A program made the position numbers and the translations under genes. DNA of 28,909 nucleotides from positions 1-28,909 of the IMG/VR virus record IMGVR_UViG_638341082_000005. The stretch is one strand, 5' to 3'. This DNA is from a virus. Its lineage: Duplodnaviria > Heunggongvirae > Uroviricota > Caudoviricetes. The notes beneath the pieces are model-generated. The model made no database searches, was not told where the DNA came from, and was given only the letters and a program-made list of their open reading frames with translations. Below are positions 5,601 to 28,533 of this stretch, piece after piece; position 1 is the stretch's first letter, and each line of letters opens with the position of its first letter.

Positions 5601-5637
5601 GTGTTTTATTGCGAGATAAGCAATTTGGTGGGTAATG

Positions 5638-5657: not shown

Positions 5658-5679
5658 TAATTGATGTTGAGGTAGGGGG

Positions 5680-8643: not shown

Positions 8644-9458
8644 GTATGGAGCTGATGGTTAAAGCGATGAAAATTCGAGTGGGTAATCCATTGCGAAAAC
8701 TGGTTCTGATCAAGCTGGCTGATAACGCCAGCGATCAGGGTGAGTGCTGGCCCAGCTACCAGCATATTGCTGACCAGTGCGAGATTAGCAAACGTTCTGT
8801 GATGAATCATATTGCGGCTCTTTGTGATTCCGGACTGGTAAAAAAAGTCACCCGGAAAGGTGAAAAAGGTAACTCAAGTAATATCTATCTCCTTCATCTT
8901 GATGGTGCAGGAGATTCACTAGGGGGTAGTGCAAATAATTCACTATCTGGTGCAGCAAATTCACCAGGTAGTGCAGGAGTTGCACCAGGGGGTGGTGCAG
9001 GAGATTCACCCAGAACCAGTCACTCTTTTGAACCAGTCAAAGAACCAGTCAATGAACCAATAGCTGTTGGTGCATCTGCTGATGAGTCTGTGCGAGTTCG
9101 TTCAAACCGACCGGAATACTCTCCGGAGTTTGAGCAGGCATGGCTGGCATACCCCAAACGTGCTGGTGGCAATTCAAAATCTGCAGCCTTCAAAGCCTGG
9201 AAAGCCCGTTTGAATGAGGGGGTAAACCCCGAAACCATGCTGGAAGGTGTGAAACGCTATGCGGGCTGGGTATCTGCGATGGGTAACAGCGGCACACAAT
9301 TTGTGAAACAGGCTGTCACGTTCTTTGGTCCGGATCGTCATTTCGAAGAATCCTGGGAAGTTCCTGCGGTATCTGCAGCCAGACGTGAGGATCCGTACTT
9401 CAAAGCCAGTTACGACAACGTGGACTACAGCCAGATCCCGGCAGGATTCAGGGGGTGA
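8640..9458 (+). CDS. putative replication initiation protein (N-terminal HTH, iteron-encoding linker)
   Basis: N-terminal winged-HTH-like segment (LRKLVLIKLADNASDQGECWPSYQHIADQCEISKRSVMNHI); Gly/Ser/Ala-rich linker encoded by tandem DNA repeats, as in lambda O; start at ATG 8640 after GGAGG. Confidence 0.5.
   Translation: MSMELMVKAMKIRVGNPLRKLVLIKLADNASDQGECWPSYQHIADQCEISKRSVMNHIAALCDSGLVKKVTRKGEKGNSSNIYLLHLDGAGDSLGGSANNSLSGAANSPGSAGVAPGGGAGDSPRTSHSFEPVKEPVNEPIAVGASADESVRVRSNRPEYSPEFEQAWLAYPKRAGGNSKSAAFKAWKARLNEGVNPETMLEGVKRYAGWVSAMGNSGTQFVKQAVTFFGPDRHFEESWEVPAVSAARREDPYFKASYDNVDYSQIPAGFRG
8905..9060. repeat. iteron-like direct repeats (candidate replication origin) inside the replication gene
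   Basis: five copies of a 15-bp motif GTGCAG(G/C)A(G/A)(A/T)T(T/G)CAC starting 8905, 8929, 8950, 8971, 8995 at 21-24 bp spacing, then 2.5 copies of GAACCAGTCAA(A/T) at 9020-9058. Confidence 0.55.
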
Positions 9459-9460
9459 TC

Positions 9461-9949
9461 ATGAGTCTTTTGAATGAAGTTCAGAAATTCATTGAAGCCC
9501 ATCCGGGGTGTACTTCCGGAGACATTGCGGATGCTTTTGCAGGTTACTCACGGCAGCGCGTTCTGCAGTCAGCAAGCAAGTTACGTCAGAGTGGGCGTGT
9601 GGCTCACCGTTGTGAAGGAGATACACGCAGACATTTCCCGCGCCTGACTGAGAGAGCGCAGGAGCCGGAACCACAACCAGTTCGTGAAACCAGACCTGTG
9701 CGCAATTTCTATGTCGGCACTAACGATCCCCGGGTGATTTTGTGCCTGACCCGCCAGGCTGAAGAACTGGAGTCAAGGGGCTTATACCGTCGTGCTGCAA
9801 CCGTGTGGATGGCGGCATTCCGTGAAAGCCACTCCCAGCCAGAACGAAACAATTTTCTGACGCGTCGTGAGCGGTGCTTACGGAAAAGCAGCAAGCGCGC
9901 TGCATCGGGTGAAGAGTGGTATCTGTCAGGGAATTACGTGGGGGCTTAA
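9461..9949 (+). CDS. PerC-like transcriptional regulator, putative
   Basis: C-terminal segment LTRQAEELESRGLYRRAATVWMAAFRESHSQPERNNFLTRRERCL resembles the PerC family; start at ATG 9461 after GGGGGTGA. Confidence 0.4.
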   Translation: MSLLNEVQKFIEAHPGCTSGDIADAFAGYSRQRVLQSASKLRQSGRVAHRCEGDTRRHFPRLTERAQEPEPQPVRETRPVRNFYVGTNDPRVILCLTRQAEELESRGLYRRAATVWMAAFRESHSQPERNNFLTRRERCLRKSSKRAASGEEWYLSGNYVGA

Positions 9950-10602
9950 TGAGTAATAAATATTGCCAGGCGCTGGTGGAACTGCGGAACAAACCAGCCC
10001 ATGAACTGAAGGAAGTGGGCGATCAGTGGCGCACGCCGGACAACATTTTCTGGGGAATTAACACCCTGTTTGGCCCGTTTGTTCTGGATCTGTTCACTGA
10101 CGGTGATAACGCCAAATGTGCTGCGTATTACACGGCGGAAGACAACGCGCTGGCGCATGACTGGTCAGAACGTCTTGCGGAGCTTAAAGGGGCTGCCTTT
10201 GGTAATCCCCCATACAGCCGCGCCAGTCAGCATGAGGGGCAATACATCACCGGCATGCGTTACATCATGAAACATGCCAGTGCCATGCGTGATAAGGGTG
10301 GGCGCTATGTTTTCCTGATCAAAGCTGCCACCAGCGAAGTGTGGTGGCCGGAAGATGCAGACCATATTGCTTTTATTCGCGGGCGTATTGGTTTTGAACT
10401 GCCTGCCTGGTTTATCCCGAAGGATGAGAAGCAGGTGCCGACAGGCGCTTTCTTCGCTGGTGCTATTGCTGTTTTCGACAAGACCTGGAAGGGACCGGCA
10501 ATCAGCTACATCGGGCGCGATGAACTTGAGGCATGTGGTGAGGCGTTTTTGGCGCAGGTTCGCCAGCAGGCAGAAAAACTTGTCAGGGAGATGGCGGCAT
10601 GA
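9949..10602 (+). CDS. phage-type DNA N6-adenine methyltransferase (orphan, no cognate nuclease seen)
   Basis: catalytic NPPY motif (GNPPYS) and overall resemblance to the phage Dam family; start ATG overlaps the upstream stop (TAATG). Confidence 0.75.
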   Translation: MSNKYCQALVELRNKPAHELKEVGDQWRTPDNIFWGINTLFGPFVLDLFTDGDNAKCAAYYTAEDNALAHDWSERLAELKGAAFGNPPYSRASQHEGQYITGMRYIMKHASAMRDKGGRYVFLIKAATSEVWWPEDADHIAFIRGRIGFELPAWFIPKDEKQVPTGAFFAGAIAVFDKTWKGPAISYIGRDELEACGEAFLAQVRQQAEKLVREMAA

Positions 10603-10925
10603 CGACGTTAACTCAATGCCAGCAGCAGGTGCTGGATATGCTGATTTCTTACCAGCAAGAGCGTGGCTTTCCGCCAACCAATCAGGAGGTGGCAACCATG
10701 CTGGGATACCGTTCAGTGAATGCAGCGGTGGAGCATCTTCGCGCACTGGAGAAAAAAGGCGTCATCACGATAAAGCGTGGCGTGGCCCGGGGGATAACGC
10801 TTCATACCGCAGTGAAGGACGACGACAGCGAAGCGGTCGGTATCATCCGCGCACTGCTTGCCGGTGAGGAGAACGCCAGGCTGCGTGCAGCCCACTGGTT
10901 ACATGAGAGGGGCCTGAAAGTATGA
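10599..10925 (+). CDS. LexA-DNA-binding-domain-like winged-helix protein
   Basis: 108 aa; MTTLTQCQQQVLDMLISYQQERGFPPTNQEVATMLGYRSVNAAVEHLRALEKKGVI resembles the LexA N-terminal domain with no peptidase domain; ATGA overlap with dam. Confidence 0.5.
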   Translation: MTTLTQCQQQVLDMLISYQQERGFPPTNQEVATMLGYRSVNAAVEHLRALEKKGVITIKRGVARGITLHTAVKDDDSEAVGIIRALLAGEENARLRAAHWLHERGLKV

Positions 10926-11311
10926 AGTTGATCCTGCCTTTCCCGCCCAGTGTGAACACGTACTGGCGACACCCCAACAAAGGGGCATTTGCTGGTAAGA
11001 GCCTGATAAGCGAGGCGGGGCGAAAATTTCAGAGCGCGGCGTGCGCAGCAATAGTTGAGCAGTTACGTCGTCTGCCGAAACCAACGTCGGCACCTGCTTC
11101 AGTGGAGATCGTGTTGTTTCCTCCGGATAACCGGATCCGCGATCTGGACAACTATAACAAGGCGCTGTTTGACGCCCTGACCCACGCGGGTGTGTGGGAA
11201 GACGACAGACAGGTGAAAAGAATGCTGGTGGAGTGGGGACCGGTTATCCCGAAAGGGAAGGTCGAGATCACTATCAGTAAGTATGAGAAACCGGCGGGTG
11301 CAGCCGCCTGA
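10922..11311 (+). CDS. rusA: RusA-family Holliday junction resolvase
   Basis: LPFPPSVNTYW and DNRIRDLDNYNKALFDALTHAGVWEDDRQV match the RusA signature including the catalytic Asp cluster. Confidence 0.85.
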   Translation: MKLILPFPPSVNTYWRHPNKGAFAGKSLISEAGRKFQSAACAAIVEQLRRLPKPTSAPASVEIVLFPPDNRIRDLDNYNKALFDALTHAGVWEDDRQVKRMLVEWGPVIPKGKVEITISKYEKPAGAAA

Positions 11312-11330
11312 TTAAGAGGAGAAACGAAGT

Positions 11331-12395
11331 ATGAATAATCTGATGGTCATTGATGGTATTGAAGTTCGTCGTGATGCTTATGGGCGTTACAGCCTGAACG
11401 ATCTGCATCGCGCAGCAGTAGCATCTGGTGCAAATGCCAGAACCAAGGAGCCAGGAAAGTTTCTTTCCAGCCAACAAACTGTTGAGCTTGTTCATGAATT
11501 GACCAACACCCAGAATTTGGGTGTTGACCCGGTGAGTGTGATTCATGGGGGAAATGAACGGGGAACGTATGTCTGCAAGGAACTGGTGTATGCCTATGCA
11601 ATGTGGATCAGCCCGTCATTCCATCTGAAGGTGATCCGTACTTTCGACATGGTAACCAGCGCACCGGAAAAATTATCCGGACAGGCTGCTGACAAGATGC
11701 AGGCTGGTGTGATTCTGCTGGACTTTATGCGCCGGGAATTAAACCTGTCTAACTCTTCAGTGCTTGGTGCCTGTCAGAAACTCCAGGAGGCTGTTGGCTT
11801 ACCGAATCTGGCACCGCGCTATGCCATTGATGCTCCTGCTGACGCGCCTGATGGCTCAAGTCGTCCTACGCTGTCGCTGAGTGCACTGCTGAAACAGTAT
11901 GGTAACCGCGTTGCTTCATCCGCGATATCGCAGTCGGCGTCACAGGTTGCCCGTGAGACAAAGGTACGCCGGAAACTGGTAAAGGAAAGGGCCAGGCTGA
12001 AAAGGGCCACGGTCAAAAATCCGCAGGCCAGAATCAAAGTTAACCGGGGGGATTTGCCCGTAATCAAGCTGGGTAATGCGCGGGTTGTCCTGTCCCGCCG
12101 CAGGCGTCGTAAAAAAGGGCAGCGTTCATCCCTGAAAGGTGGCGGCAGCGTGCTTGTGGTGGGTAACCGTCGTATTCCCGGCGCGTTTATTCAGCAACTG
12201 AAAAATGGCCGGTGGCATGTCATGCAGCGTGTGGCCGGGAAAAACCGTTACCCCATTGATGTGGTGAAAATCCCGATGGCGGTGCCGCTGACCACGGCGT
12301 TTAAACAGAATATTGAGCGGATACGGCGTGAGCGTCTTCCGAAAGAGCTGGGCTATGCGCTGCAGCATCAACTGAGAATGGTAATAAAGCGATGA
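11331..12395 (+). CDS. chimeric ORF: KilA-N domain fused in frame to the C-terminal ~160 aa of lambda head completion protein Z
   Basis: N-terminus has the KilA-N domain (MVIDGIEVRRDAYGRYSLNDLHRAA...YAMWISPSFHLKVIRTFD); from about residue 195 (NRVASSAISQSASQVARETKVRR... to ...LRMVIKR) it matches lambda gpZ and is followed by U and V. Confidence 0.7.
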   Translation: MNNLMVIDGIEVRRDAYGRYSLNDLHRAAVASGANARTKEPGKFLSSQQTVELVHELTNTQNLGVDPVSVIHGGNERGTYVCKELVYAYAMWISPSFHLKVIRTFDMVTSAPEKLSGQAADKMQAGVILLDFMRRELNLSNSSVLGACQKLQEAVGLPNLAPRYAIDAPADAPDGSSRPTLSLSALLKQYGNRVASSAISQSASQVARETKVRRKLVKERARLKRATVKNPQARIKVNRGDLPVIKLGNARVVLSRRRRRKKGQRSSLKGGGSVLVVGNRRIPGAFIQQLKNGRWHVMQRVAGKNRYPIDVVKIPMAVPLTTAFKQNIERIRRERLPKELGYALQHQLRMVIKR

Positions 12396-12787
12396 AACAT
12401 ACTGAACTCCGTGCAGCCGTACTGGATGCACTGGAGAAGCATGACACCGGGGCGACGCTTTTTGATGGTCGCCCCGCTGTTTTTGATGAGGAAGATTTTC
12501 CGGCAATTGCCGTTTATCTCACCGGCGCTGAATACACGGGCGAAGAGCTGGACAGCGATACCTGGCAGGCGGAGCTGCATATTGAAGTTTTCCTGCCTGC
12601 TCAGGTGCCGGATTCAGAGCTGGATTCGTGGATGGAGTCCCGGATTTATCCGGTGATGAGCGATATCCCGGCACTGTCAGATTTGATCACCAGTATGGTG
12701 GCCAGTGGCTATGACTACCGGCGCGACGATGATGCGGGCCTGTGGAGTTCAGCCGATCTGACTTATGTCATTACCTATGAAATGTGA
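12392..12787 (+). CDS. U: tail terminator protein U
   Basis: 131-aa translation essentially identical to lambda gpU as remembered. Confidence 0.9.
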
Positions 12788-12794
12788 GGACGCT

Positions 12795-13535
12795 ATGCCT
12801 GTACCAAATCCAACAATGCCGGTGAAAGGTGCCGGGACCACACTGTGGGTTTATAAGGGGAACGGTGACCCTTATGCGAACCCGCTTTCAGACGTTGACT
12901 GGTCGCGTCTGGCAAAAGTTAAAGACCTGACGCCCGGCGAACTGACCGCTGAGTCCTATGACGACAGCTATCTCGATGATGAAGATGCGGACTGGACTGC
13001 GACCGGGCAGGGGCAGAAATCTGCCGGAGATACCAGCTTCACGCTGGCGTGGATGCCCGGAGAGCAGGGGCAGCAGGCGCTGCTGGCGTGGTTTAATGAA
13101 GGTGATACCCGTGCCTATAAAATCCGCTTTCCTAACGGCACGGTCGATGTGTTCCGTGGCTGGGTCAGCAGTATCGGTAAAGCGGTGACGGCGAAGGAAG
13201 TGATCACCCGCACGGTGAAGGTCACCAATGTGGGACGCCCGTCGATGGCTGAAGATCGCAGTACGGTGACGGCGGCAACCGGCATGACGGTAACGCCAGC
13301 CAGTGCGTCCGTAGTGAAAGGACAGAGCACCACGCTGACCGTGGCATTCCAGCCGGAAGGCGTAACCGACAAGAGCTTCCGTGCGGTGTCTTCGGATAAA
13401 ACAAAAGCCACCGTGTCGGTCAGTGGTATGACCATCACCGTGAACGGCGTTGCTGCAGGCAAGGTCAACATTCCGGTCGTATCCGGTAATGGTGAGTTTG
13501 CTGCGGTTGCAGAAATCACCGTCACCGCCAGTTAA
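12795..13535 (+). CDS. V: major tail tube protein V
   Basis: [22 protein letters not shown]... matches lambda gpV including the C-terminal Ig-like domain; start at ATG 12795 after GAGGA. Confidence 0.9.
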
Positions 13536-13550
13536 TCCGGAGAGTCAGCG

Positions 13551-13964
13551 ATGTTCCTGAAAACCGAATCATTTGAATATAACGGCGTGACCGTCACGCT
13601 TTCTGAACTGTCAGCCCTGCAGCGTATTGAGCATCTCGCTCTGATGAAACAGCAGGCAGAATCCGACAGCAACCGGAAGTTTACTGTGGAAGACGTCATC
13701 AGAACCGGCGCTTTTGTGGTGGCGATGTCCCTGTGGCATAACCATCCGAAGAAGACGCAGATGCCGTCCATGAATGAAGCCGTTAAACAGATTGAGCAGG
13801 AAGTGCTTACCACCTGGCCCACAGAGGCAATTTCTCATGCTGAAAACGTGGTGTACCGGCTGTCCGGAATGTATGAGTTTGTGGTGAATAATGCCCCTGA
13901 ACAGGCAGATGACGCCGGGCCTGCAGAGCCTGTTTCTGCGGGAAAGTGTTCGACGGTGAGCTGA
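13551..13964 (+). CDS. G: tail assembly chaperone G
   Basis: MFLKTESFEYNGVTVTLSELSALQRIEHLAL... matches lambda gpG. Confidence 0.9.
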   Translation: MFLKTESFEYNGVTVTLSELSALQRIEHLALMKQQAESDSNRKFTVEDVIRTGAFVVAMSLWHNHPKKTQMPSMNEAVKQIEQEVLTTWPTEAISHAENVVYRLSGMYEFVVNNAPEQADDAGPAEPVSAGKCSTVS

Positions 13965-14380
13965 GTTTTGCCCTGAAACTGGCGCGTGAGATGGGGCGAC
14001 CCGACTGGCGCGCCATGCTTGCCGGGATGTCATCCACGGAGTATGCCGACTGGCACCGCTTTTACAGTACCCATTATTTTCATGATGTTCTGCTGGATAT
14101 GCATTTTTCCGGGCTGACGTACACCGTGCTCAGCCTGTTTTTCAGCGATCCGGATATGCATCCGCTGGATTTCAGTCTGCTGAACCGGCGTGAGGCTGGC
14201 GAAGAGCCTGAAGATGATGTGCTGATGCAGAAAGCGGCAGGGCTTGCCGGAGGCGTTCGTTTTGGCCCGGACGGGAATGAAGTTATCCCCGCTTCCCCGT
14301 ATGTGGCGGACATGACGGAGGATGACGTAATGCTGATGACAGTATCAGAAGGGATCGCAGGAGGAGTCCGGTATGGCTGA
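13946..14380 (+). CDS. T: T portion of the G-T tail assembly chaperone, expressed by programmed -1 frameshift from G
   Basis: slippery heptamer G GGA AAG at 13940-13946 in the G frame, the lambda G-T slip site; the -1 frame continues as lambda gpT sequence. Confidence 0.8.
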   Translation: MFDGELSFALKLAREMGRPDWRAMLAGMSSTEYADWHRFYSTHYFHDVLLDMHFSGLTYTVLSLFFSDPDMHPLDFSLLNRREAGEEPEDDVLMQKAAGLAGGVRFGPDGNEVIPASPYVADMTEDDVMLMTVSEGIAGGVRYG

Positions 14381-16934
14381 ACCGGTAGGCGATCTGGTCG
14401 TTGATTTAAGTCTGGATGCGGCCAGATTTGACGAGCAGATGGCCAGAGTCAGGCGTCATTTTTCCGGTACGGAAAGTGATGCGAAAAAAACAGCGGCAGT
14501 CGTTGAACAGTCAATGAACCGGCAGGCGCTGGCTGCACAGAAAGCGGGGATTTCCGTCGGGCAGTATAAAGCTGCCATGCGTATGCTGCCTGCGCAGTTC
14601 ACCGACGTGGCCACGCAGCTTGCAGGGGGGCAGAATCCGTGGCTCATCCTGCTGCAACAGGGTGGTCAGGTGAAGGACTCCTTCGGCGGGATGATCCCCA
14701 TGTTCAGGGGGCTTGCCGGTGCGATCACCCTGCCGATGGTTGGTATCACTTCGCTGGCGGTGGCGACCGGTGCGCTGGCGTATGCCTGGTATCAGGGTGA
14801 CTCAACCCTGTCCAATTTCAATAAAACGCTGGTCCTTTCCGGTAATCAGGCGGGACTGACGGCAGATCGTATGCTGGCCCTGTCCAGATCCGGGCAGGCG
14901 GCAGGGCTGACGTTTAACCAGACCAGCGAGTCACTGACGGCGCTGGTGAATGCCGGTGTGCGTGGTGGTGAGCAGTTTGAGGCAATCAGCCAGAGTGTGG
15001 CGCGTTTCTCCTCTGCATCCGGTGTGGAGGTGGACAAGGTCGCTGAAGCCTTCGGGAAGCTGACCACTGACCCGACGTCGGGGCTGACGGCGATGGCGCG
15101 CCAGTTCCATAACGTGACGGCGGAGCAGATTGCGTATGTTGCTCAGTTGCAGCGTTCCGGCGATGGGGCCGGGGCATTGCAGGCGGCGAACGAGGCCGCA
15201 ACGAAAGGGTTTGATGACCAGACCCGCCGCCTGAAAGAGAACATGGGCACGCTGGAGACCTGGGCAGACAGGACAGCGCGGGCATTCAAATCCATGTGGG
15301 ATGCGGTGCTGGATATTGGTCGTCCTGATACCGCGCAGGAGATGCTGATTAAGGCAGAGGCTGCGTTTAAGAAAGCAGACGACATCTGGAATCTGCGCAA
15401 GGATGATTATTTTGTTAACGATGAAGCGCGGGCGCGTTACTGGGATGATCGTGAAAAGGCCCGTCTTGCGCTTGAAGCCGCCCGAAAGAAGGCTGAGCAG
15501 CAGACTCAACAGGACAAAAATGCGCAGCAGCAGAGCGATACCGAAGCATCACGGCTGAAATATACCGAAGAGGCGCAGAAGGCTTACGAACGGCTGCAGA
15601 CGCCGCTGGAGAAATATACCGCCCGTCAGGAAGAACTGAACAAGGCACTGAAAGACGGGAAAATCCTGCAGGCGGATTACAACACGCTGATGGCGGCGGC
15701 GAAAAAGGATTATGAAGCGACGCTGAAAAAGCCGAAACAGTCCGGCGTGAAGGTGTCTGCGGGCGATCGTCAGGAAGACAGTGCTCATGCTGCCCTGCTG
15801 ACGCTTCAGGCAGAACTCCGGACGCTGGAGAAGCATGCCGGAGCAAATGAGAAAATCAGCCAGCAGCGCCGGGATTTGTGGAAGGCGGAGAGTCAGTTCG
15901 CGGTACTGGAGGAGGCGGCGCAACGTCGCCAGCTGTCTGCACAGGAGAAATCCCTGCTGGCGCATAAAGATGAGACGCTGGAGTACAAACGCCAGCTGGC
16001 TGCACTTGGCGACAAGGTTACGTATCAGGAGCGCCTGAACGCGCTGGCGCAGCAGGCGGATAAATTCGCACAGCAGCAACGGGCAAAACGGGCCGCCATT
16101 GATGCGAAAAGCCGGGGGCTGACTGACCGGCAGGCAGAACGGGAAGCCACGGAACAGCGCCTGAAGGAACAGTATGGCGATAATCCGCTGGCGCTGAATA
16201 ACGTCATGTCAGAGCAGAAAAAGACCTGGGCGGCTGAAGACCAGCTTCGCGGGAACTGGATGGCAGGCCTGAAGTCCGGCTGGAGTGAGTGGGAAGAGAG
16301 CGCCACGGACAGTATGTCGCAGGTTAAAAGTGCAGCCACGCAGACCTTTGATGGTATTGCACAGAATATGGCGGCGATGCTGACCGGCAGTGAACAGAAC
16401 TGGCGCAGCTTCACCCGATCCGTGCTGTCCATGATGACAGAAATTTTGCTTAAGCAGGCAATGGTGGGGATTGTCGGGAGTATCGGCAGCGCCATTGGCG
16501 GTGCTGCCAGTGGTGGCGCATCAGCGTCAGGTGGTACAGCCATTCAGGCAGCTGCGGCGAAATTCCATTTTGCGACCGGAGGATTTACGGGAACCGGCGG
16601 CAAATATGAGCCAGCGGGGATTGTTCACCGTGGTGAATTTGTCTTCACGAAGGAGGCAACCAGCCGGATTGGCGTGGGGAATCTCTACCGGCTGATGCGC
16701 GGCTATGCCACCGGTGGTTATGTCGGTACACCGGGCAGCCTGGCGGACAGCCGGTCGCAGGCGTCCGGGAAGTTTGAGCAGAATAACCATGTGGTGATTA
16801 ACAACGACGGCACGAACGGTCAGATAGGGCCACAGGCGCTGAAGGCGGTTTATGACGTAGCCCGTAAGGCGGCAATGGATGTTGTGACCGGGCAGATGCG
16901 TGATGGTGGTCTGTTCTCCGGAGGTGGACGATGA
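14373..16934 (+). CDS. H: tail tape measure protein H
   Basis: 853 aa, same length as lambda gpH; coiled-coil-rich with Gly-rich C-terminal region; sits between T and M. Confidence 0.9.
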   Translation: MAEPVGDLVVDLSLDAARFDEQMARVRRHFSGTESDAKKTAAVVEQSMNRQALAAQKAGISVGQYKAAMRMLPAQFTDVATQLAGGQNPWLILLQQGGQVKDSFGGMIPMFRGLAGAITLPMVGITSLAVATGALAYAWYQGDSTLSNFNKTLVLSGNQAGLTADRMLALSRSGQAAGLTFNQTSESLTALVNAGVRGGEQFEAISQSVARFSSASGVEVDKVAEAFGKLTTDPTSGLTAMARQFHNVTAEQIAYVAQLQRSGDGAGALQAANEAATKGFDDQTRRLKENMGTLETWADRTARAFKSMWDAVLDIGRPDTAQEMLIKAEAAFKKADDIWNLRKDDYFVNDEARARYWDDREKARLALEAARKKAEQQTQQDKNAQQQSDTEASRLKYTEEAQKAYERLQTPLEKYTARQEELNKALKDGKILQADYNTLMAAAKKDYEATLKKPKQSGVKVSAGDRQEDSAHAALLTLQAELRTLEKHAGANEKISQQRRDLWKAESQFAVLEEAAQRRQLSAQEKSLLAHKDETLEYKRQLAALGDKVTYQERLNALAQQADKFAQQQRAKRAAIDAKSRGLTDRQAEREATEQRLKEQYGDNPLALNNVMSEQKKTWAAEDQLRGNWMAGLKSGWSEWEESATDSMSQVKSAATQTFDGIAQNMAAMLTGSEQNWRSFTRSVLSMMTEILLKQAMVGIVGSIGSAIGGAASGGASASGGTAIQAAAAKFHFATGGFTGTGGKYEPAGIVHRGEFVFTKEATSRIGVGNLYRLMRGYATGGYVGTPGSLADSRSQASGKFEQNNHVVINNDGTNGQIGPQALKAVYDVARKAAMDVVTGQMRDGGLFSGGGR

Positions 16935-17260
16935 AAACCTTCCGCTGGAAAGTGAAACCGGGTATGGATGTGGCTTCGGCTCCTTCCGTCAGGGAGGTGC
17001 GCTTTGGTGATGGTTACTCCCAGCGCGCGCCTGCCGGGCTGAATGCCAACCTGAAAACGTACAGCGTGACACTTTCTGTTTCCCGTGAGGAAGCCACGGC
17101 GCTGGAGTCATTTCTGGCAGAGCACGGGGGCTGGAAAGCCTTTCTGTGGACACCGCCTTATGGTTACAGGCAGATAAAGGTGACCTGCGCAAAGTGGACT
17201 GTGCGGGTCAGTATGTTGCGCGCTGAGTTCAGCGCAGAGTTTAAACAGGTGGTGAACTGA
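16931..17260 (+). CDS. M: minor tail protein M
   Basis: 109 aa, matches lambda gpM; ATGA overlap with H. Confidence 0.9.
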   Translation: MKTFRWKVKPGMDVASAPSVREVRFGDGYSQRAPAGLNANLKTYSVTLSVSREEATALESFLAEHGGWKAFLWTPPYGYRQIKVTCAKWTVRVSMLRAEFSAEFKQVVN

Positions 17261-19336: not shown

Positions 19337-21531
19337 ATGGGTAAAGGCAGCAGTAAGGGGCATACCCCGCGCGAAGCGAAGGACAACCTGAAGTCCACGC
19401 AGATGCTGAGCGTGATAGACGCCATCAGTGAAGGGCCGATTGAAGGTCCGGTGGACGGATTAAAAAGTGTGCTGCTGAACAGTACGCCAGTGCTGGACAG
19501 TGAGGGGAATACCAATATCTCCGGTGTCACGGTGGTTTTCCGGGCAGGTGAGCAGGAGCAGACACCGCCGGAGGGATTTGAATCCTCCGGCTCCGAGACG
19601 GTGCTGGGTACGGAAGTGAAGTACGACACGCCGATTATCCGGTCAGCGTGGAGGTCCAGTCCGTCACCGACGGCGTGAAGGTGAAAGTGAGCCGGGTTCC
19701 TGACGGCGTTGCAGAATACAGCGTGTGGGGGCTGAAGCTGCCGACGCTGCGCCAGCGCCTGTTCCGCTGCGTGAGTATCCGTGAGAACGATGACGGTACG
19801 TATGCCATCACCGCCGTGCAGCATGTGCCGGAGAAAGAAGCCATCGTGGATAACGGGGCGCACTTTGACGGCGACCAGAGCGGCACGGTGAATGGTGTCA
19901 CGCCGCCAGCGGTGCAGCACCTGATCGCCGAAGTCACCGCAGACAGCGGGGAATACCAGGTGCTGGCGCGCTGGGACACGCCGAAGGTGGTGAAGGGCGT
20001 GAGCTTCCTGCTCCGTCTGACCGTGGCAGCGGACGACGGCAGTGAGCGGCTGGTCAGCACGGCCAGGACGACGGAAACCACATACCGCTTCAGGCAACTG
20101 GCGCTGGGGCGTTACACGCTGACAGTCCGGGCAGTAAATGCGTGGGGGCAGCAGGGCGATCCGGCGTCGGTATCGTTCCGGATTGCCGCACCGTCAGCGC
20201 CGTCGCGGATTGAGCTAACTCCGGGCTATTTTCAGATCACCGCCACGCCGCATCTTGCCGTTTATGACCCGACGGTACAGTTTGAGTTCTGGTTCTCGGA
20301 AAAGCGGATTGCGGATATCAGGCAGGTTGAAACCACAGCCCGCTATCTTGGCACGGCGCTGTACTGGATAGCAGCCAGTATCAATATCAAGCCGGGCCAT
20401 GATTATTATTTTTACATCCGCAGTGTGAACACCGTTGGCAAATCGGCATTCGTGGAGGCTGTTGGCCAGCCGAGTGATGATGCATCCGGCTATCTGGATT
20501 TTTTCAAAGGAGAGATAGGGAAAACCCATCTGGCTCAGGAGTTGTGGACGCAGATTGATAACGGTCAGCTTGCGCCTGACCTGGCGGAAATCAGAACGTC
20601 CATCACGGATGTCAGTAATGAAATCACGCAGACCGTCAATAAGAAACTGGAAGACCAGAGTGCAGCGATCCAGCAGATACAGAAGGTTCAGGTTGATACA
20701 AATAATAACCTGAACAGCATGTGGGCTGTGAAGCTGCAGCAGATGCAGGACGGACGCCTTTATATCGCGGGTATCGGTGCCGGTATTGAGAACACCCCCG
20801 ACGGTATGCAGAGTCAGGTGCTGCTGGCGGCAGACAGGATTGCGATGATTAATCCTGCGAATGGCAACACAAAGCCGATGTTTGTTGGTCAGGGCGATCA
20901 GATATTCATGAACGAAGTGTTCCTGAAATACCTGACGGCTCCCACCATTACCAGCGGCGGTAATCCTCCGGCATTTTCCCTGACACCGGACGGGCGGCTG
21001 ACGGCGAAAAATGCAGATATCAGCGGTAACGTGAATGCGAACTCCGGGACGCTCAACAATGTCACGATTAATCAGAACTGCCGGATTCTGGGAAAACTGT
21101 CAGCCAACCAGATTGAAGGCGATATTGTTAAAACGGTGGGCAAAGCTTTCCCCCGGGACTCCCGTGCACCGGAACGGTGGCCATCAGGGACCATTACCGT
21201 CAGGGTTTATGACGATCAGCCGTTTGACCGGCAAATTGTTATTCCAGCGGTGGCTTTCAGCGGTGCCAGACATGAACGGGAGAATAGCGATACTTATTCG
21301 TCATGCCGCCTGATAGTGAAGAAAAACGGGGCTGAAATTTATAACCGAACGGCTCTGGATAATACTCTGATTTACACGGGTGTTATTGATATGCCTGCAG
21401 GCAGTGGCGTAATGACACTGGAGTTTTCGGTATCAGCATGGTGGGTAAATGGCTGGTATCCCACAGCAAGTATCAGCGATTTGCTGGTTGTGGTGATGAA
21501 GAAAGCCACCGCAGGCATCAGTATCAGCTGA
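19337..21531 (+). pseudogene. J: tail tip / host specificity protein J with ~1.5 kb internal deletion and frame change
   Basis: first ~100 codons match the lambda J N-terminus (MGKGSSKGHTPREAKDNLKST...VKYDTPI); this frame stops at 19678; a second frame from 19648 ([20 protein letters not shown]...) matches lambda J from about residue 600; junction near 19636-19640. Confidence 0.75.
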
Positions 21532-22198: not shown

Positions 22199-22225
22199 TT
22201 AGCCAGGTAACACAGTGTTATGACA

Positions 22226-22251
22226 GCCCGCCGGTTCAGGCGGGCTTTTTT
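22226..22251 (+). terminator. rho-independent terminator after lom
   Basis: AGCCCGCC-GGTTCA-GGCGGGCT followed by TTTTTT. Confidence 0.7.
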
Positions 22252-22262
22252 GTGGAGTGGAT

Positions 22263-24620
22263 ATGGCAGCAGTAAAAATCTCAGGTGTGCTGAAAGATGG
22301 TGCGGGAAAACCAATACAGAACTGCACTATTCAACTGAAGGCAAAGCGCAACAGCACCACGGTACTGGTGAACACGGTGGCCTCTGAAAATCCGGATGAA
22401 GCCGGGCGTTACAGCATGGATGTTGAGTATGGTCAGTACAGCGTCACCCTGCTGGTTGAAGGTTTTCCGCCTTCACATGCCGGGACCATTACCGTCTATG
22501 AAGGTTCCAGACCAGGTACGCTGAATGATTTTCTCGGTGCCATGACGGAAGATGATGTCATGCCGGAGGCATTGCGTCGTTTTGAGGCAATGGTGGAAGA
22601 AGCGGCACGCAACGCTGAAGCCGCCTCTCAGAGCGCAGCAGCGGCAAAGAAATCCGAAACTGCAGCGGCATCATCGAAGAACGCGGCGAAAACCTCAGAA
22701 ACGAATGCAGCTAACAGCGCACAGGCGGCAGCGTCCTCGCAGACTGCATCGGCAAACTCCGCGACAGCAGCCAAAAAATCAGAAACCAATGCGAAAAACA
22801 GTGAGACAGCCGCAAAGACGAGCGAAACCAACGCAAAGTCCAGCCAGACGGCAGCGAAAACAAGCGAAACGAATGCCAAAGCCAGTGAAACTGCGGCGAA
22901 AAGCAGTCAGGATGCAGCAGCCGAAAGCGAGAGTGCTGCAGCTGGTTCTGCGACTTCAGCAGCTGGATCAGCAACTGCTGCGGCTAACAGCCAGAAAGCA
23001 GCGAAGACGAGCGAAACTAACGCAAAGTCCAGCCAGACGGCAGCGAAGACCAGCGAAACGAATGCCAAAGCCAGCGAAACTGCGGCGAAAAACAGTCAGG
23101 ATGCAGCAGCCCAAAGCGAGAGTGCCGCAGCTGGTTCTGCAACAGCGGCAGCTAATAGCCAAAAAGCTGCAAAAACCAGTGAAACTAACGCAAAGACGAG
23201 TGAAACAAAAGCAGCAGCCAGCGAGACAGAAGCAACGTCAGCCGCAACAAGAGCAGAGAATGCAGCCCGGATTGCAGAAGATGCCGCTGATCCTGCTTCT
23301 GTCCCTCCGCTTCCTGATATCTGGCTACCCTTGAATGATTCTCTGGAAGCGATAACAGGGTATGCCCCGGGCTATAAAACAATAACCATCGGCAGTGATG
23401 AAATAACAATGCCTGTTAATGGCATATGCCAATTTAGCCGGGCTTCATCTGCAACGTATATTGATAAGTCCGGGCATATTACCGTGGCAGGGAATAACGT
23501 TCCTCGTTTTGAAAAATATGGTTTGCTGATAGAGAATCAGCGAACAAACATGTTCGTAAATAGTTTTAATCCTGATGCCTGGAATAAAAGCGGTGGTATA
23601 TCTGTAACATCATCAACAGATGAATTTGAGTTTAAATATGGACGTTTCACGGTAGGAAGCGATATAGCAGGAACGACAACAGGGCGAAATATATGCACAG
23701 TTGCTGGTAACAAAGGCATAGATGTGACTGGCGATGATCAGTACAGTAAAGGTCCGTATGTTACCGCGTCGTTCAGGGTAAGAAGTGATCTCAATGTTCG
23801 CGCACGTATCCGTTTTGAACGATATAACTCGGAAGGATACACCTTCCTTTGCGACGCCTATTTGTCATTACAGACCCATGAACTACAAATTACTGGTGGC
23901 AATGCCCAGCTATTAACAGCAAACTTTGAAATCGATCCAGGTAGTGGATGGATATATTTTCAGGCAACACTGAAATGTCTGCCAGAATGGGGAATGGTTG
24001 GTACGCAGCTGCAAATTGCAGCCGACAGAGCTGTGGGGTCTTTTGCAACAGGTGACTGGATAGAAGTAACCACCCCGCAATTCGAGTATGGTGCTTGTGC
24101 AACTTCCTTCATCATAACGACAACTGAGCCAGCGACTCGTGCATCAGATTTATGTAAATTTCCGCTGATGAAAAATATGTATACCATGCCTTTTACGTTC
24201 ATGGTGGAAGTCCATAAAAACTGGTTTATTTCTCATAATGCGGCACCGCGTGTCATTGATTCAGAAAATCACCAGTCCGGAGGCCCATTTATTATGGGGT
24301 TTGGTTCTTCTGGAACTATTAGTCAGGACGGTTATTCGTATTGCGATATAGGCGGGGCTAACCGACGTGTATATGAGTCATGCGGAGTAAGAGATCTTGT
24401 TATGGGATTCAGGGTTAAGGCTGACGGCATGACATGCTCATTTGCAAATAAGCATATAAGCACAGAAACAAAAACAGTATGGAAATATATTCGTGAAGCT
24501 GCTGTGATTCGTATCGGGGGACAAACGACGACAGGATTACGACACCTTAATGGTCATATAAAAAACCTCCGTTTCTGGAACAGAGCATTGTCAGATACGC
24601 AGCTTAAGGAATACGTATAA
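22263..24620 (+). CDS. stf: side tail fibre protein: lambda Stf-type N-terminus with a different C-terminal domain
   Basis: N-terminus MAVKISGVLKDGAGKPIQNCTIQLKAKRNSTTV... matches lambda Stf; then SETNAK-type repeats; C-terminal ~450 aa unlike lambda, ending in a jelly-roll/LamG-like signature (HLNGHIKNLRFWNRALSDTQL); start at ATG 22263 (ORF-track 22257 is GTG). Confidence 0.8.
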   Translation: MAAVKISGVLKDGAGKPIQNCTIQLKAKRNSTTVLVNTVASENPDEAGRYSMDVEYGQYSVTLLVEGFPPSHAGTITVYEGSRPGTLNDFLGAMTEDDVMPEALRRFEAMVEEAARNAEAASQSAAAAKKSETAAASSKNAAKTSETNAANSAQAAASSQTASANSATAAKKSETNAKNSETAAKTSETNAKSSQTAAKTSETNAKASETAAKSSQDAAAESESAAAGSATSAAGSATAAANSQKAAKTSETNAKSSQTAAKTSETNAKASETAAKNSQDAAAQSESAAAGSATAAANSQKAAKTSETNAKTSETKAAASETEATSAATRAENAARIAEDAADPASVPPLPDIWLPLNDSLEAITGYAPGYKTITIGSDEITMPVNGICQFSRASSATYIDKSGHITVAGNNVPRFEKYGLLIENQRTNMFVNSFNPDAWNKSGGISVTSSTDEFEFKYGRFTVGSDIAGTTTGRNICTVAGNKGIDVTGDDQYSKGPYVTASFRVRSDLNVRARIRFERYNSEGYTFLCDAYLSLQTHELQITGGNAQLLTANFEIDPGSGWIYFQATLKCLPEWGMVGTQLQIAADRAVGSFATGDWIEVTTPQFEYGACATSFIITTTEPATRASDLCKFPLMKNMYTMPFTFMVEVHKNWFISHNAAPRVIDSENHQSGGPFIMGFGSSGTISQDGYSYCDIGGANRRVYESCGVRDLVMGFRVKADGMTCSFANKHISTETKTVWKYIREAAVIRIGGQTTTGLRHLNGHIKNLRFWNRALSDTQLKEYV
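22811..23150 (+). repeat. tandem near-identical ~150-bp duplication (period ~190 bp) inside stf
   Basis: the block ACGAGCGAAAC(C/T)AACGCAAAGTCCAGCCAGACGGCAGCGAA...GCAGCTGGTTCTGC occurs twice (from ~22819 and ~23008) with a few substitutions, encoding the repeated AKTSETNAKSSQTAAKTSETNAKASETAAK motif. Confidence 0.8.
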
Positions 24621-24889
24621 TGCGGGATATAACATTACGATTCGATAACAGAGAACAGTTTAACGCAATTGTATATGACAGTGGCCTGTTCAGTCTTGAA
24701 GAAGAAAACGGGGTTCTTGTTGATGTTATTGGCTGCGTTATCGATTACGAGGAGCCAGAAAACGAAAGATGTACAGGCATTGATCGCGGTGGTTTTTTCG
24801 TAAATATGAGGATCGTTGATAGCAGTAAAAATATATCTTCTTTAATGCCTTTCATTACGACAGATCAGCATGTAAGGACATGGGCTTAA
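24620..24889 (+). CDS. small acidic hypothetical protein translationally coupled to stf
   Basis: 89-aa ORF; its ATG overlaps the stf stop (TAATG); no family recognised; not a lambda-type Tfa. Confidence 0.4.
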   Translation: MRDITLRFDNREQFNAIVYDSGLFSLEEENGVLVDVIGCVIDYEEPENERCTGIDRGGFFVNMRIVDSSKNISSLMPFITTDQHVRTWA

Positions 24890-24901
24890 TGGAGTAAGAC
24901 A

Positions 24902-25585
24902 ATGGTTACAAAAACAGTAATTCCGGGAGACATCACCACGCTAAAGGGAGATATTTCCTCAATTAACGGAAAAGTATCAACGCTTCAGACTGAGATGACC
25001 AGTGCAAAGCAGGATATCAGCTCCAGATACACAAAAACTGAAGTTGATAATAAGCTGAAAAACAAACTGGAAGTGAATGCTCTCGAAAGCGGTAATTATG
25101 GTGGAGATTTTTACCCGCTGACTGGCCGCGAAGCGTTTTATTTATGGGGGTTGGGCACGACTACTGCGGCGGCAAACCTTTATCTTAATCCTGACCCTGC
25201 AATTTCGTCTGTACTGCGGTCAACATCGTCTATCCGCTATAAACATTCAGTAGAGACGATAGATTCAGAGCACGCCGATGTCATTTTCAGGATGCGCCCT
25301 GTGTGGTACAGGTCGCAATGCGAAAATGACAGGCGTGACTGGGGGTTCTACGGATTGATTGCCGAGGAAGTAGGAGAAATTGCCCCTCAGTTTGTACACT
25401 GGCGACCAGCTAACGAAGATGATGCTCCTGAAGCTATTTCCAGCAATGGCCTTGTTGCCGAAGGTGTAATGTACGAACGTCTGGTTGTTCCACTGATTCA
25501 CCATATCCAAAAGCTGACAGAAAGAGTTGATGAACTTGAGTCAGAATTAAAGTTGTTATTAACTTCCCGAAGCGATATCGGATAA
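24902..25585 (+). CDS. short tail-fibre-like protein with C-terminal intramolecular-chaperone (peptidase S74-like) domain
   Basis: N-terminal coiled-coil-like segment; C-terminal SSIRYKHSVETI...WGFYGLIAEEVGEIAPQFV resembles endosialidase-type auto-cleaving chaperone domains; GGAG RBS 7 nt upstream. Confidence 0.45.
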   Translation: MVTKTVIPGDITTLKGDISSINGKVSTLQTEMTSAKQDISSRYTKTEVDNKLKNKLEVNALESGNYGGDFYPLTGREAFYLWGLGTTTAAANLYLNPDPAISSVLRSTSSIRYKHSVETIDSEHADVIFRMRPVWYRSQCENDRRDWGFYGLIAEEVGEIAPQFVHWRPANEDDAPEAISSNGLVAEGVMYERLVVPLIHHIQKLTERVDELESELKLLLTSRSDIG

Positions 25586-25588
25586 AGG

Positions 25589-25882
25589 ATGAAAATGGAT
25601 ATAACACCTTTCCTTCATGCACTTTGTGCTGTGGCTGCGCAGGTACTGGTTGGTCTTTTTACCGGAAACTGGGCTTACGGGGCGATAGCCGGTTGTACAT
25701 TCTTCATTGCGCGGGAACACACCCAGGCAGAATATCGCTGGATTGAAATGTTCGGGCATGGCAAGCGTATGAATATGCCGTGGTGGGGCGGTTTTGATCC
25801 ACGTGCATGGGATGTGGCAAGCCTGATGGATTTTGCTGTGCCGGTGGTGGCGTGTCTGCTGATCTGGATGTTGATCCGTTAA
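25589..25882 (+). CDS. small putative membrane protein (two hydrophobic segments)
   Basis: hydrophobic stretches LHALCAVAAQVLVGLF and FAVPVVACLLIWMLI; true start may be the second ATG at 25595, which has better RBS spacing. Confidence 0.4.
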   Translation: MKMDITPFLHALCAVAAQVLVGLFTGNWAYGAIAGCTFFIAREHTQAEYRWIEMFGHGKRMNMPWWGGFDPRAWDVASLMDFAVPVVACLLIWMLIR

Positions 25883-25895
25883 ATATAAAAAGTAA

Positions 25896-25929
25896 AAAGC
25901 CGCAGTAACTTGTCATGATAGGATACTGC
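25896..25929 (-). terminator. terminator downstream of the dinI-like gene
   Basis: inverted repeat GCCGCAGTA / TACTGCGGC followed on the minus strand by TTTTTACTTTTTATATTT. Confidence 0.5.
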
Positions 25930-25999
25930 GGCTGGCTGGTTAACTTTCGATAGTGCGAGTATTGAATGATTTCCAGCCGTTACCGATTTTACGTGTTAA

Positions 26000-26248
26000 T
26001 TAGTGAACAAACCACTCGTCAGCAGACTCCCAGGTATCTTTCAGAGTTTCCTGAACAAAAGTTTTAGCTGAATCTTTATCGGCGGTGCGCGTAACAGAAA
26101 GGCCATCGTTGCTGGTGGCTTTTACGATCACCTCTACATCGTCATAACGTTTACTGATGCGTCGGGTTAATTCTTCCTTTAACGCATCCACAGCACCGGT
26201 TGGCATTTTAGTCATTTTTTCTTTGGCTATGCAGATTTCAATACGCAT
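26000..26248 (-). CDS. dinI: DinI-family DNA-damage-inducible protein
   Basis: 82 aa; [11 protein letters not shown]...[13 protein letters not shown]...[15 protein letters not shown] closely resembles E. coli DinI; tandem LexA boxes immediately upstream. Confidence 0.8.
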
Positions 26249-26309: not shown

Positions 26310-27407
26310 TCAAGAGGTCTTATTTCTGCTCTTTTGGAGCTCTTCAAAACGATTATGTAAAGATTTCGGATACAGTTCGGTATATACCTGCCATAGCACG
26401 TTTAATGAACGATGCCCTGTAACTTGGGCGACTTCCTCAATACTAAAACCAGCCTCAAATAAGCGACTTGCCCCTTCTCTACGCAAATCATGGTATCGCA
26501 GATCTTTAATACCTAATTTGCTTCTTACCCTCTGAAATCCCGCAGTAACAGAAGTGCTGTTATATGGAAAAATGAATTCCGATTTTTGGGGCTGTCGTTG
26601 GACGATATCCCAGGCTTCCCCAAGCAAGGCTACTTTCATGTGGTTGCCTTCCTTTTTGCGTGGATCTTTCCTGTCTCTTACGAGTATAGATTTTTGTTCC
26701 TGGTCGAGATCTTCCCATCGTAACCGGCATACTTCTCCGATTCGCATACAGGACCACACAGAAAATTTGAGGATATCAACGAACGGAATTTTTGAGCATT
26801 TATGTGTAGATCGTTGTTGAAGACCTTCAATGAGCATGTCCAGTTCATCAGATGCCGGTCTACGATTACGACGGTTTGATTTACCAATCAAACCAAGTTT
26901 AAGTAGATATGGACGAGCACTTTTCGCCGGGTTTGATGTGTAATTAATTCCGTATACAGGTTTGGCCGCATCCAGAACACTGCCAAGATAACTAACATCG
27001 TGGCTGACTGTTGCTGGACCTGCACCAGCGTTGTTTCTTAGCCTACAATGTTCAATTACGTCATTTTCTGTCAGTTCGGATAGTTTGATCGCGGAGATGT
27101 CACTATCCATAAGCAGTTCCAGCACATATCTTTTAGTACGACCTGCTTTACCTCCGGCATTTGGGTCATTTAAATATTTGTGTAGTAAGTCACGGACTGT
27201 AAGTCCGTCAACTGCATTTGATGATGGAATGCCATATAGATCTAATTCCATCACTTTCTGTGTACCCCATGTTTTGGCATGGGCATGTTTAGGGAATGTT
27301 TTGCTTTCCCTGTAAGTGATAACACCTTTTTCTTTGATAATCACATTACAGCGATAGCGTGGTGTGCCATCGGATTTTAGTCGTTTCTCTATGTTATAGT
27401 ACGCCAT
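26310..27407 (-). CDS. int: tyrosine site-specific integrase, dusA-associated
   Basis: 365 aa with tyrosine-recombinase C-terminal catalytic region (RIGEVCRLRWEDLD, HDLRREGASRLFEAG, Tyr near the C-terminus); adjacent to and divergent from dusA. Confidence 0.9.
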   Translation of the reverse strand: MAYYNIEKRLKSDGTPRYRCNVIIKEKGVITYRESKTFPKHAHAKTWGTQKVMELDLYGIPSSNAVDGLTVRDLLHKYLNDPNAGGKAGRTKRYVLELLMDSDISAIKLSELTENDVIEHCRLRNNAGAGPATVSHDVSYLGSVLDAAKPVYGINYTSNPAKSARPYLLKLGLIGKSNRRNRRPASDELDMLIEGLQQRSTHKCSKIPFVDILKFSVWSCMRIGEVCRLRWEDLDQEQKSILVRDRKDPRKKEGNHMKVALLGEAWDIVQRQPQKSEFIFPYNSTSVTAGFQRVRSKLGIKDLRYHDLRREGASRLFEAGFSIEEVAQVTGHRSLNVLWQVYTELYPKSLHNRFEELQKSRNKTS

Positions 27408-27495: not shown

Positions 27496-28533
27496 ATGCA
27501 CGATAATCCTGAAACACAGAAAACTAATCAAACCAGCGCGATGCCTGAGAAAACTGGCGCTTACGGGAGTTCTCGGTTTAGCATTGCTCCTATGCTCGAC
27601 TGGACGGACAGACATTGCCGCTATTTCTTGCGTCTGCTTTCCCGCAATACGTTGCTGTATACCGAAATGGTGACCACAGGGGCGATTATTCACGGTAAAG
27701 GTGATTACCTGGCGTACAGTGAAGAAGAACATCCGGTAGCGTTGCAACTCGGCGGTAGCGATCCGGCGGCGCTGGCACAGTGTGCGAAGCTGGCAGAAGC
27801 GCGTGGATATGATGAGATCAACCTGAATGTCGGCTGCCCGTCTGACCGGGTGCAGAACGGCATGTTTGGTGCGTGTCTGATGGGTAATGCGCAGCTGGTT
27901 GCCGACTGCGTGAAAGCGATGCGCGATGTGGTGTCGATTCCGGTGACGGTGAAAACGCGTATTGGCATCGACGACCAGGACAGCTATGAATTTCTCTGCG
28001 ATTTCATCAACACCGTTTCCGGCAAAGGCGAGTGTGAGATGTTCATCATCCATGCACGTAAAGCCTGGCTTTCGGGGTTAAGTCCGAAAGAAAACCGTGA
28101 GATCCCGCCGCTCGATTATCCGCGTGTGTATCAACTGAAGCGTGACTTTCCGCATCTGACAATGTCGATTAACGGTGGTATCAAGTCGCTGGAAGAGGCC
28201 AAAGCACACCTGCAACATATGGATGGCGTGATGGTCGGGCGCGAGGCGTATCAGAATCCGGGTATTCTGGCGGCGGTAGACCGGGAGATCTTTGGTTCCT
28301 CGGATATCGATGCCGATCCGGTGGCGGTAGTGCGCGCCATGTATCCGTACATTGAGCGTGAACTCAGCCAGGGGACGTATCTCGGTCATATTACCCGGCA
28401 TATGTTGGGCTTGTTCCAGGGTATTCCTGGCGCGCGGCAGTGGCGGCGTTATTTAAGTGAAAATGCCCATAAAGCGGGTGCAGACATTAATGTGCTGGAA
28501 CACGCGCTCAAACTGGTGGCGGATAAGCGTTAA
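27496..28533 (+). CDS. dusA: tRNA-dihydrouridine(20/20a) synthase DusA
   Basis: 345-aa translation with the Dus fold ([17 protein letters not shown]..., NLNVGCP..., catalytic region) matching E. coli DusA; N-terminal ~35 residues look variant. Confidence 0.9.

Follow-up and report, generated by a model that had tools for sequence, protein, structure and literature searches.

What do the three genes that follow the side tail fibre gene stf in a lambdoid prophage do, and do they belong together? The stretch of DNA analysed, called the window below, comprises all 28,909 nucleotides (nt) of the caudoviricete record IMGVR_UViG_638341082_000005 in IMG/VR. Three open reading frames (ORFs) lie there between stf and the dinI and integrase genes. 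An initial annotation of the locus had suggested that they could form a specialised fibre-maturation set, with a fibre remnant or cargo such as a superinfection-exclusion protein as alternatives. We found that the block consists of three separate modules rather than one functional trio. It is ordinary and widespread: uncharacterised genes extend the side-tail-fibre locus, and an orphan membrane gene joins them. All three are common in E. coli phages, and here they sit in a broken prophage. The genes concerned are:

22257 to 24620, plus strand: stf, encoding the side tail fibre Stf of 787 amino acids (aa); PF08400, and phrog_1419 over the full length.
24620 to 24889, plus strand: ORF89, a small acidic protein of 89 aa with a predicted alpha/beta fold; TAATG overlap with stf, phrog_1361.
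24902 to 25585, plus strand: ORF227, a putative short fibre protein of 227 aa with a C-terminal intramolecular chaperone; PF13884, phrog_3299 and phrog_4563.
25589 to 25882, plus strand: ORF97, a predicted three-helix integral membrane protein, phrog_1443, with the UniProt name 'Ybl63'; assigned from homologues and an AlphaFold2 (AF2) model.

As first annotated, the three block ORFs are present and intact, and they are tightly packed on the plus strand. ORF227 starts 12 nt past ORF89 with GGAG in front, and the spacing from ORF227 to ORF97 is 3-9 nt (3 nt for the annotated start). Scans for sigma-70-like promoters and plus-strand terminators found neither within the block. Beyond it lie dinI (26000-26248, convergent) and then the integrase gene (26310-27407), adjoining dusA. 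The block is 99.5% identical to that of the temperate phage PhiR55_1, and the order stf, small ORF, mid ORF, membrane ORF also occurs in phages PhiR47_1, PhiR11_1, PhiR49_1 and IdasGreatGrand. With the same order in these five sequenced phages and in 76 of the 80 best IMG/VR E. coli prophage loci, and with ratios of nonsynonymous to synonymous substitution (dN/dS, close homologues) of 0.15 for ORF89, 0.14 for ORF227 and 0.13 for ORF97, the ORFs represent more than chance. All three are under purifying selection. A literature search found no paper characterising any of them, and none matched a PADLOC model at E<=1.

Conservation of the trio as a unit, which the initial annotation had put up for checking, holds for gene order but not for joint inheritance, as the alleles reassort. 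Identity to stf and the small ORF is 98% for both genes in PhiR47_1 and PhiR11_1, and 49-61% and 33%, respectively, in IdasGreatGrand and PhiR49_1. ORF97 is 90-97% identical whichever stf, small and mid alleles are present. Both alleles of the mid ORF (227/234 aa or 346 aa) occur with all three stf C-terminal types among 64 distinct IMG/VR combinations. The Mantel correlation was 0.48 between the stf C-terminus and the small ORF, 0.18 between the stf C-terminus and the mid ORF, 0.08 between the small and mid ORFs, and approximately 0 between ORF97 and either stf or the small ORF. The mid ORF is absent from phage 21 and the phage-plasmid PhiR41_1, which carry stf, the small ORF and ORF97. A tblastn search with ORF227 returned 63 phage records, mostly T1-like Drexlerviridae. 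In the virulent T1-like phages KarlJaspers, SECphi27 and swan01, a 92-aa ORF with overlapping start and a 225-235-aa protein with an S74 domain come after the lateral tail fibre gene, and no ORF97 homologue was found in this fibre module. These comparisons indicate that ORF89 and ORF227 are part of a lateral-fibre module common to virulent T1-like phages and that ORF97 is a separate element. Since the three genes differ in distribution and reassort independently, the block is not a single specialised set. Their homologues stand in a conserved arrangement in named phages, but none has been characterised, so the three cannot be equated with well-characterised fibre-assembly components. Overall, the initial interpretation is partly supported.

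The reading we prefer, with a probability of roughly 55%, is that the block is a composite: three modules, each inherited on its own, that lie at the distal end of a late operon of lambdoid type. The biochemical roles that we infer for each module, from gene structure, homology, distribution, co-variation and selection, are set out gene by gene below.

ORF97 is the only part of the block with real discovery potential. Its true start is probably the second ATG at 25595 (MDITP...), giving 95 aa, because homologues begin there and AGGA lies 6-7 nt upstream. The exact 95-aa protein is the 'Ybl63' of UniProt, a name for which no literature was found. The product is hydrophobic, and its AF2 model has three helices (6-25, 28-55 and 76-96) with a predicted local distance difference test score (pLDDT) of 93. 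The initial description as a two-helix membrane protein was therefore right about the membrane and approximate about the helices. Between helices 2 and 3 lies the most conserved element of the family:

25709 to 25813, plus strand: invariant polar loop AREHTQAEYRWI..FG.GKR.NMPWWGGFD.R.W of ORF97, aa 41-75.

In an alignment of 31 family sequences, with identity down to 57%, residues R42, E43, T45-I52, R60, M63, P64, W66-D70 and W74 are invariant, and the helices additionally hold conserved D4, H10, Q18, D81 and P85. The mean number of Lys plus Arg residues is 5.5 in the loop, 0.3 in the N-terminus and 0.7 in the C-terminus. By the positive-inside rule the loop could be cytoplasmic, although we regard this orientation as uncertain. 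No Pfam or NCBIfam family matched ORF97 at E<=0.1, including GtrA-like and O-antigen-modification membrane proteins. A PADLOC scan and PDB sequence and profile searches were likewise without match, and Foldseek against BFVD returned only a 42-aa fragment of the same family, leaving fold searches uninformative. All 464 homologues are 'hypothetical' and none is annotated. ORF97 has no lipobox and its Cys13 is variable in the alignment, which does not fit a lipoprotein of the Cor/Llp type.

Of 5,426 complete E. coli genomes, 1,918 carry ORF97 (median 2 copies, up to 7), 746 the ORF227 type and 141 the ORF89 type. The ORF97 family spans sipho-, myo- and podoviruses, and alpha-, beta- and gamma-proteobacteria as well as Desulfovibrio. 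A scan of one genome per species placed it in genera that include Escherichia, Leclercia, Pantoea, Aeromonas, Halomonas, Comamonas, Acidovorax, Devosia, Chelativorans and Desulfovibrio, and in sphingomonads. The gene that precedes the ORF97 homologue varies widely:

Phage 21: a LamG-type Stf.
Aeromonas P2-like prophage: an S74 fibre.
HC6: an S74 tailspike.
Uetakevirus phiv142-3: a pectate-lyase tailspike.
Halomonas phiHAP-1: Tfa.
Comamonas: a giant GpJ.

Outside Escherichia, about one third of the upstream neighbours (n=42) are recognisable tail, fibre or spike proteins and 3 are LigA. A specific tie to S74 fibres was considered and rejected, as the gene is also found behind non-S74 receptor-binding proteins. 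The sphingomonad ORF97-like genes (locus L160, 5004-5282; L151; L162) lie directly 3' of ligA, the gene for NAD-dependent DNA ligase, with no recognisable phage genes near, and may represent chromosomal genes that stand alone. A convergent sitABCD iron/manganese transporter operon follows the ORF97 homologue of phage 21 (locus L011, 4886-8335), which makes the position past ORF97 a cargo slot.

We propose that ORF97 would be an inner-membrane protein at the 3' end of receptor-binding-protein loci that acts on the host envelope, through superinfection exclusion or interference with receptor or entry, and not in fibre assembly. That it is indifferent to the type of receptor-binding protein and to the host, and that its loop is invariant, suggest that its target is a conserved component of the cell. 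A role on the envelope such as superinfection exclusion is plausible, as it fits both the position of the gene and its retention in prophages. Of the three ORFs, ORF97 is thus the only one for which exclusion cargo, as raised in the initial annotation, is possible. It is conceivable, and we offer this only tentatively, that ORF97 represents a new widespread class of small inner-membrane effectors that end receptor-binding-protein loci, whose AREHTQAEYRWI/MPWWGGFD loop would bind some universally conserved part of the envelope, or modify it, and so block phage entry or alter the cell surface.

A serious rival, though one we consider rather unlikely, is that ORF97 serves the phage's own late cycle, for instance as a membrane protein that aids the maturation of fibres or tails, sets the timing of lysis or stops progeny particles re-adsorbing to debris. 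The gene runs in the same direction as late structural genes, is closely packed with them and showed no promoter-like site that would serve it alone. Some virulent phages carry it, HC6 and Aeromonas jumbo phages among them, its phiv142-3 copy lies between the tail fibre and the lysis cassette, and its sequence does not vary with the type of receptor-binding protein. It is however absent from T1-like phages with the same fibre module, E. coli genomes hold intact copies of it in high number, the one in this defective prophage among them, and the putative chromosomal copies beside ligA do not fit a late-cycle role either.

Stf itself lies after J and lom, as expected for a lambda-type side tail fibre, and its N-terminus is the lambda-type anchor (PF08400, E=1e-66, Pfam). 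An Ala/Ser/Glu-rich repeat shaft leads to a C-terminal domain of approximately 450 aa, within which aa 424-629 match NCBIfam NF048003, the head-spike-fibre domain of gene transfer agents (GTA), and which also matches the structure of RcGTA Rcc01080 (6tb9, E=6.5e-4). The C-terminus is thus non-lambda, in line with the initial annotation. The phage 21 Stf homologue additionally matches a LamG/ConA-like domain. Within the shaft, 22790-23213 is a tandem duplication (189 nt, 2.2 copies, 81-92% match) over a 42-nt periodicity that encodes Ala/Ser/Glu/Thr/Lys-rich repeats of Stf. The gap between lom and stf holds a strong terminator-like hairpin on the plus strand (22225-22246; 8 bp, 7 GC, T-run); in an intact phage, read-through of this hairpin would need Q-mediated antitermination.

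The TAA stop of stf overlaps the ATG of ORF89 (TAATG) and the product has an isoelectric point of 4.4, bearing out its initial description as acidic and coupled to stf. In all seven phages inspected, the small ORF is coupled to the fibre gene in this way, its start overlapping the stop. Across the 80 E. coli prophage loci (64 distinct combinations), the W89-type small ORF was found only with the W-type stf C-terminus. Because of this universal translational coupling and co-variation with the fibre C-terminus, ORF89 is probably a Stf-specific assembly or accessory subunit. In the proposed composite, it would be made in step with Stf through the stop-start overlap and act as a dedicated partner of the lectin-like C-terminal domain, whether by helping it to fold or assemble or by staying bound as an accessory subunit. 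ORF89 would then stand in place of lambda Tfa, though unrelated to it. The Caudo_TAP/Tfa profile found no match in ORF89 in a Pfam scan, nor in the other two products, as the initial annotation had held.

ORF89 belongs to phrog_1361, of unknown function. It matched no family in Pfam or NCBIfam and none in PADLOC, and PDB sequence and profile searches were also without match. Its AF2 model, a small alpha/beta fold of moderate confidence (pLDDT 70), gave no informative match in a fold search. A single-sequence search returned 4 homologous proteins and a profile search 326, whilst a search of 1.84 billion representatives returned 7 proteins, 3 of them low-complexity false positives. In these homologue searches the family was restricted to Escherichia phages. 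The idea that ORF89 accompanies every GTA-spike-like fibre domain was rejected, as it fails in Comamonas and Chelativorans.

ORF227 has the layout of a small fibre with its own chaperone, in which three features can be placed:

24902 to 24952, plus strand: N-terminal motif MVTKTVIPGDITTLKGD, aa 1-17, common to unrelated alleles; proposed docking peptide.
25223 to 25243, plus strand: predicted autoproteolytic site T108/S109, with K114 five residues past the Ser.
25226 to 25582, plus strand: S74 intramolecular chaperone domain, aa 109-227, including a C-terminal helix; PF13884 and LtfA match.

PF13884 (Peptidase_S74) matches aa 109-165 with 26.8 bits against a gathering cut-off of 22, which confirms that the protein ends in an endosialidase-type chaperone domain. 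Residues 102-215 match 952-1068 of DT57C LtfA (8hqz, E=1.6e-5), and the region upstream also matches 'YTKTEVD' repeats of the same fibre. The N-terminal 60 aa are coiled-coil-like, again as first described, and may form a trimer, with a match to the P22 needle gp26 (E=0.011), and the first 45 residues match positions 1-45 of phrog_4563, a family of 346-aa 'tail fiber protein' sequences. The coiled coil is followed by a tip of approximately 45 aa, so that only 108 aa precede the S74 domain. The predicted cleavage motif reads T108-S109-S-I-R-Y-K114. In T5 pb1 cleavage occurs at T1263/S1264 with K1269 as the activating base; its S74 domain folds the attached trimeric tip, and cleavage then unmasks the receptor-binding tip (PMC4690869).

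The two mid ORF alleles share only the N-terminal MVTKTVIPxDIxTLKxD motif, and blastp of ORF227 against the 346-aa protein of PhiR11_1 gave a match confined to aa 1-51. The motif is also present in the aligned N-termini of the T1-like homologues. The 346-aa allele has an extra domain of approximately 190 aa ahead of its own S74 domain. About 70 of 72 loci hold an intact mid ORF of 346, 234 or 227 aa. In PhiR47_1 the 346-type mid ORF is frameshifted into 294 + 37 aa (locus L002, 4603-5643), and plaques were still formed on ECOR13. This phage is thus a natural knockout, and its plaques indicate that the S74 gene is accessory, like side fibres.

The mid ORF is an exchangeable cassette that combines with every stf type, and the best reading by analogy is that ORF227 is a second, branch-like fibre component and not a remnant. 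We propose that it would be a self-contained mini-fibre in which the S74 domain templates trimerisation of the upstream 108 residues and then cuts itself off at T108/S109. The mature trimer would dock by its conserved N-terminal peptide onto the side fibre or the tail tip. The outcome would be a branched fibre with a second, exchangeable binding element (the 227/234-aa or 346-aa alleles), analogous to LtfA/LtfB.

Alternatively, ORF227 might be a trans-acting chaperone for Stf, forming with ORF89 a two-protein maturation set for the lectin-like Stf C-terminus. We judge this improbable. The GenBank label 'putative lateral tail fiber chaperone' for the S74 protein of KarlJaspers and PeterMerian implies such a role, although no paper was found that discusses this protein. 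In T1-like phages the S74 gene always lies directly 3' of this Stf family and the small ORF, and the 108 aa ahead of the S74 domain form a short region that is conserved and not hypervariable. Yet the two unrelated alleles pair freely with three stf C-terminal types, which is unexpected for a client-specific chaperone, and one of them carries the extra domain described above before its own S74. Phage 21 and PhiR41_1 have this Stf family without a mid ORF, and PhiR47_1 is viable with a frameshifted allele. The S74 domain of T5 pb1, moreover, acts on its own polypeptide and is then released (PMC4690869). That ORF227 is instead the decaying 3' remnant of a longer fibre gene displaced by an incoming stf-ORF89 cassette, one of the alternatives in the initial annotation, is very improbable and already largely refuted: fibre loci are recombination hotspots and all 227 aa align to the last 237 of the 1,385 positions of the fibre family phrog_3299 (1147-1383, E=7e-132), but the gene has its own Shine-Dalgarno sequence and conserved ATG, shares its N-terminal 17 aa with the unrelated 346-aa allele (where they form the phrog_4563 N-terminus), is a separate intact gene in virulent T1-like phages, and is intact in nearly all of the 72 loci with the low dN/dS given above.

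Several points weigh against the composite we favour. The tip of the 227-type protein is approximately 70% conserved between lambdoid and T1-like phages, which is unusual for a receptor-binding tip; its ligand may therefore be a conserved glycan or another phage protein. A place for ORF89 and mature ORF227 in virions is only predicted, and the one set of virion proteomics found (swan01) was shallow, with five proteins detected. ORF97 resembles no known exclusion protein or defence model in PADLOC and fold searches. It had no promoter of its own in the scan, and its expression in a lysogen is only putative. It also occurs in some virulent phages and, in three sphingomonad genomes, next to ligA, which would fit a more general membrane function.

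The prophage that carries the block, at dusA, is defective relative to PhiR55_1, a state that had escaped the initial annotation. Window positions 1-11909 correspond to PhiR55_1 206-12114. In the ORF at 11331-12392, a regulator-like early gene (phrog_129) is fused with the C-terminal half of a tail completion protein resembling gpZ (phrog_27). The prophage lacks the Q, lysis, terminase, portal and head genes that PhiR55_1 has, and the remaining Z'-U-V-G-T-H genes (11910-17256 region) belong to another lambdoid lineage, having no nucleotide match to that phage. J has a normal start at 19337 (MGKGSSKGHTPREAKDNL), but a 1,279-nt internal deletion near 19640 shifts the frame, and only a C-terminal 627-aa ORF remains of it within 19337-21531. 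With Q, lysis, terminase and head genes lost and J frameshifted, the fibre genes cannot build virions here, and without Q the normal late expression of the fibre block is gone. The block is an intact module, recently stranded in what is now a cryptic prophage.

PhiR55_1 homology reaches approximately 105 nt into the dusA ORF (27496-27601), so the phage supplies a surrogate dusA 5' end, as is expected for dusA-targeting integrases. Window positions 1-991, at the left end, hold a two-gene pair that the PhiR55_1 record names as YafM antitoxin and YafO toxin. One further feature separates the block from dinI:

25887 to 25932, minus strand: dinI terminator, a hairpin (25899-25932) plus T-run read from the sequence.

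Lambdoid and T1-like phages owe their host range to side and lateral fibres, and these phages serve as models, as particles for gene delivery and in phage therapy. If the proposed composite is true, the exchangeable S74 mini-fibre cassette and the fibre-specific small partner would be targets for engineering and for host-range prediction. The evidence also speaks against calling the 227-aa protein a 'chaperone'. About one third of complete E. coli genomes carry ORF97, frequently with several copies, and the gene is unannotated; a phenotype for it would fill a gap in prophage biology.

Among known systems, the exclusion proteins Cor (phi80/N15/T1), Llp (T5), HK97 gp15 and P22 SieA resemble ORF97 as small envelope proteins beside receptor-binding genes, a likeness of positional logic only. 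HK97 gp15 and P22 SieA are inner-membrane proteins, whilst Cor and Llp are linked to receptor loci. Unlike lipoproteins of the Cor/Llp type, ORF97 has no lipobox, and it has no similarity in sequence or fold to any annotated protein. It also differs from receptor-specific exclusion proteins in being nearly invariant from Escherichia to Comamonas and Sphingomonas. A comparison with the Tai tail-assembly-interference systems was dropped: the paper concerns proteins that target J or the needle, with no link to the block.

For the fibre genes, lambda Stf/Tfa agrees in its N-terminal Stf domain and in where it lies in the genome, behind J and lom. Its C-terminal domain is however unrelated, ORF89 has no Caudo_TAP/Tfa signature, and lambda has neither an S74 gene nor ORF97. 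The T1-like Drexlerviridae KarlJaspers (Bas06), SECphi27 and swan01 are closer, with a fibre, a small ORF of approximately 92 aa and an S74 protein of approximately 225-235 aa. Identities are 39-58% over the C-terminal ~530 aa of the fibre, 32% for the small ORF and 57-62% for the S74 protein. In these phages the N-terminal fibre anchor is of the T1 type and not the lambda PF08400 type found here; they are also virulent and without ORF97.

ORF227 shares with the T5 pb1/K1F endosialidase chaperone (PF13884; PMC4690869) a profile hidden Markov model match, a Thr-Ser scissile bond, a Lys at +5 and a C-terminal helix. Its passenger is a coiled coil with a tip of approximately 45 aa rather than a large beta-helical spike or bullet-shaped domain, and it is encoded by a small stand-alone gene. 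The closest functional analogue of ORF227, by analogy of position and domains, is the LtfA/LtfB pair that forms the branched L-shaped tail fibres of the T5-like phage DT57C (PMC4728585, PMC10713586). ORF227 is far shorter than these proteins, with a mature part of 108 aa, its attachment to Stf is only proposed, and the proximal fibre here ends in a lectin-like C-terminal domain of its own and comes with an additional partner of 89 aa. Both arrangements nonetheless combine a tail-anchored proximal fibre with a downstream-encoded second fibre protein that is thought to be attached through it, and both use C-terminal chaperone domains of the S74 type.

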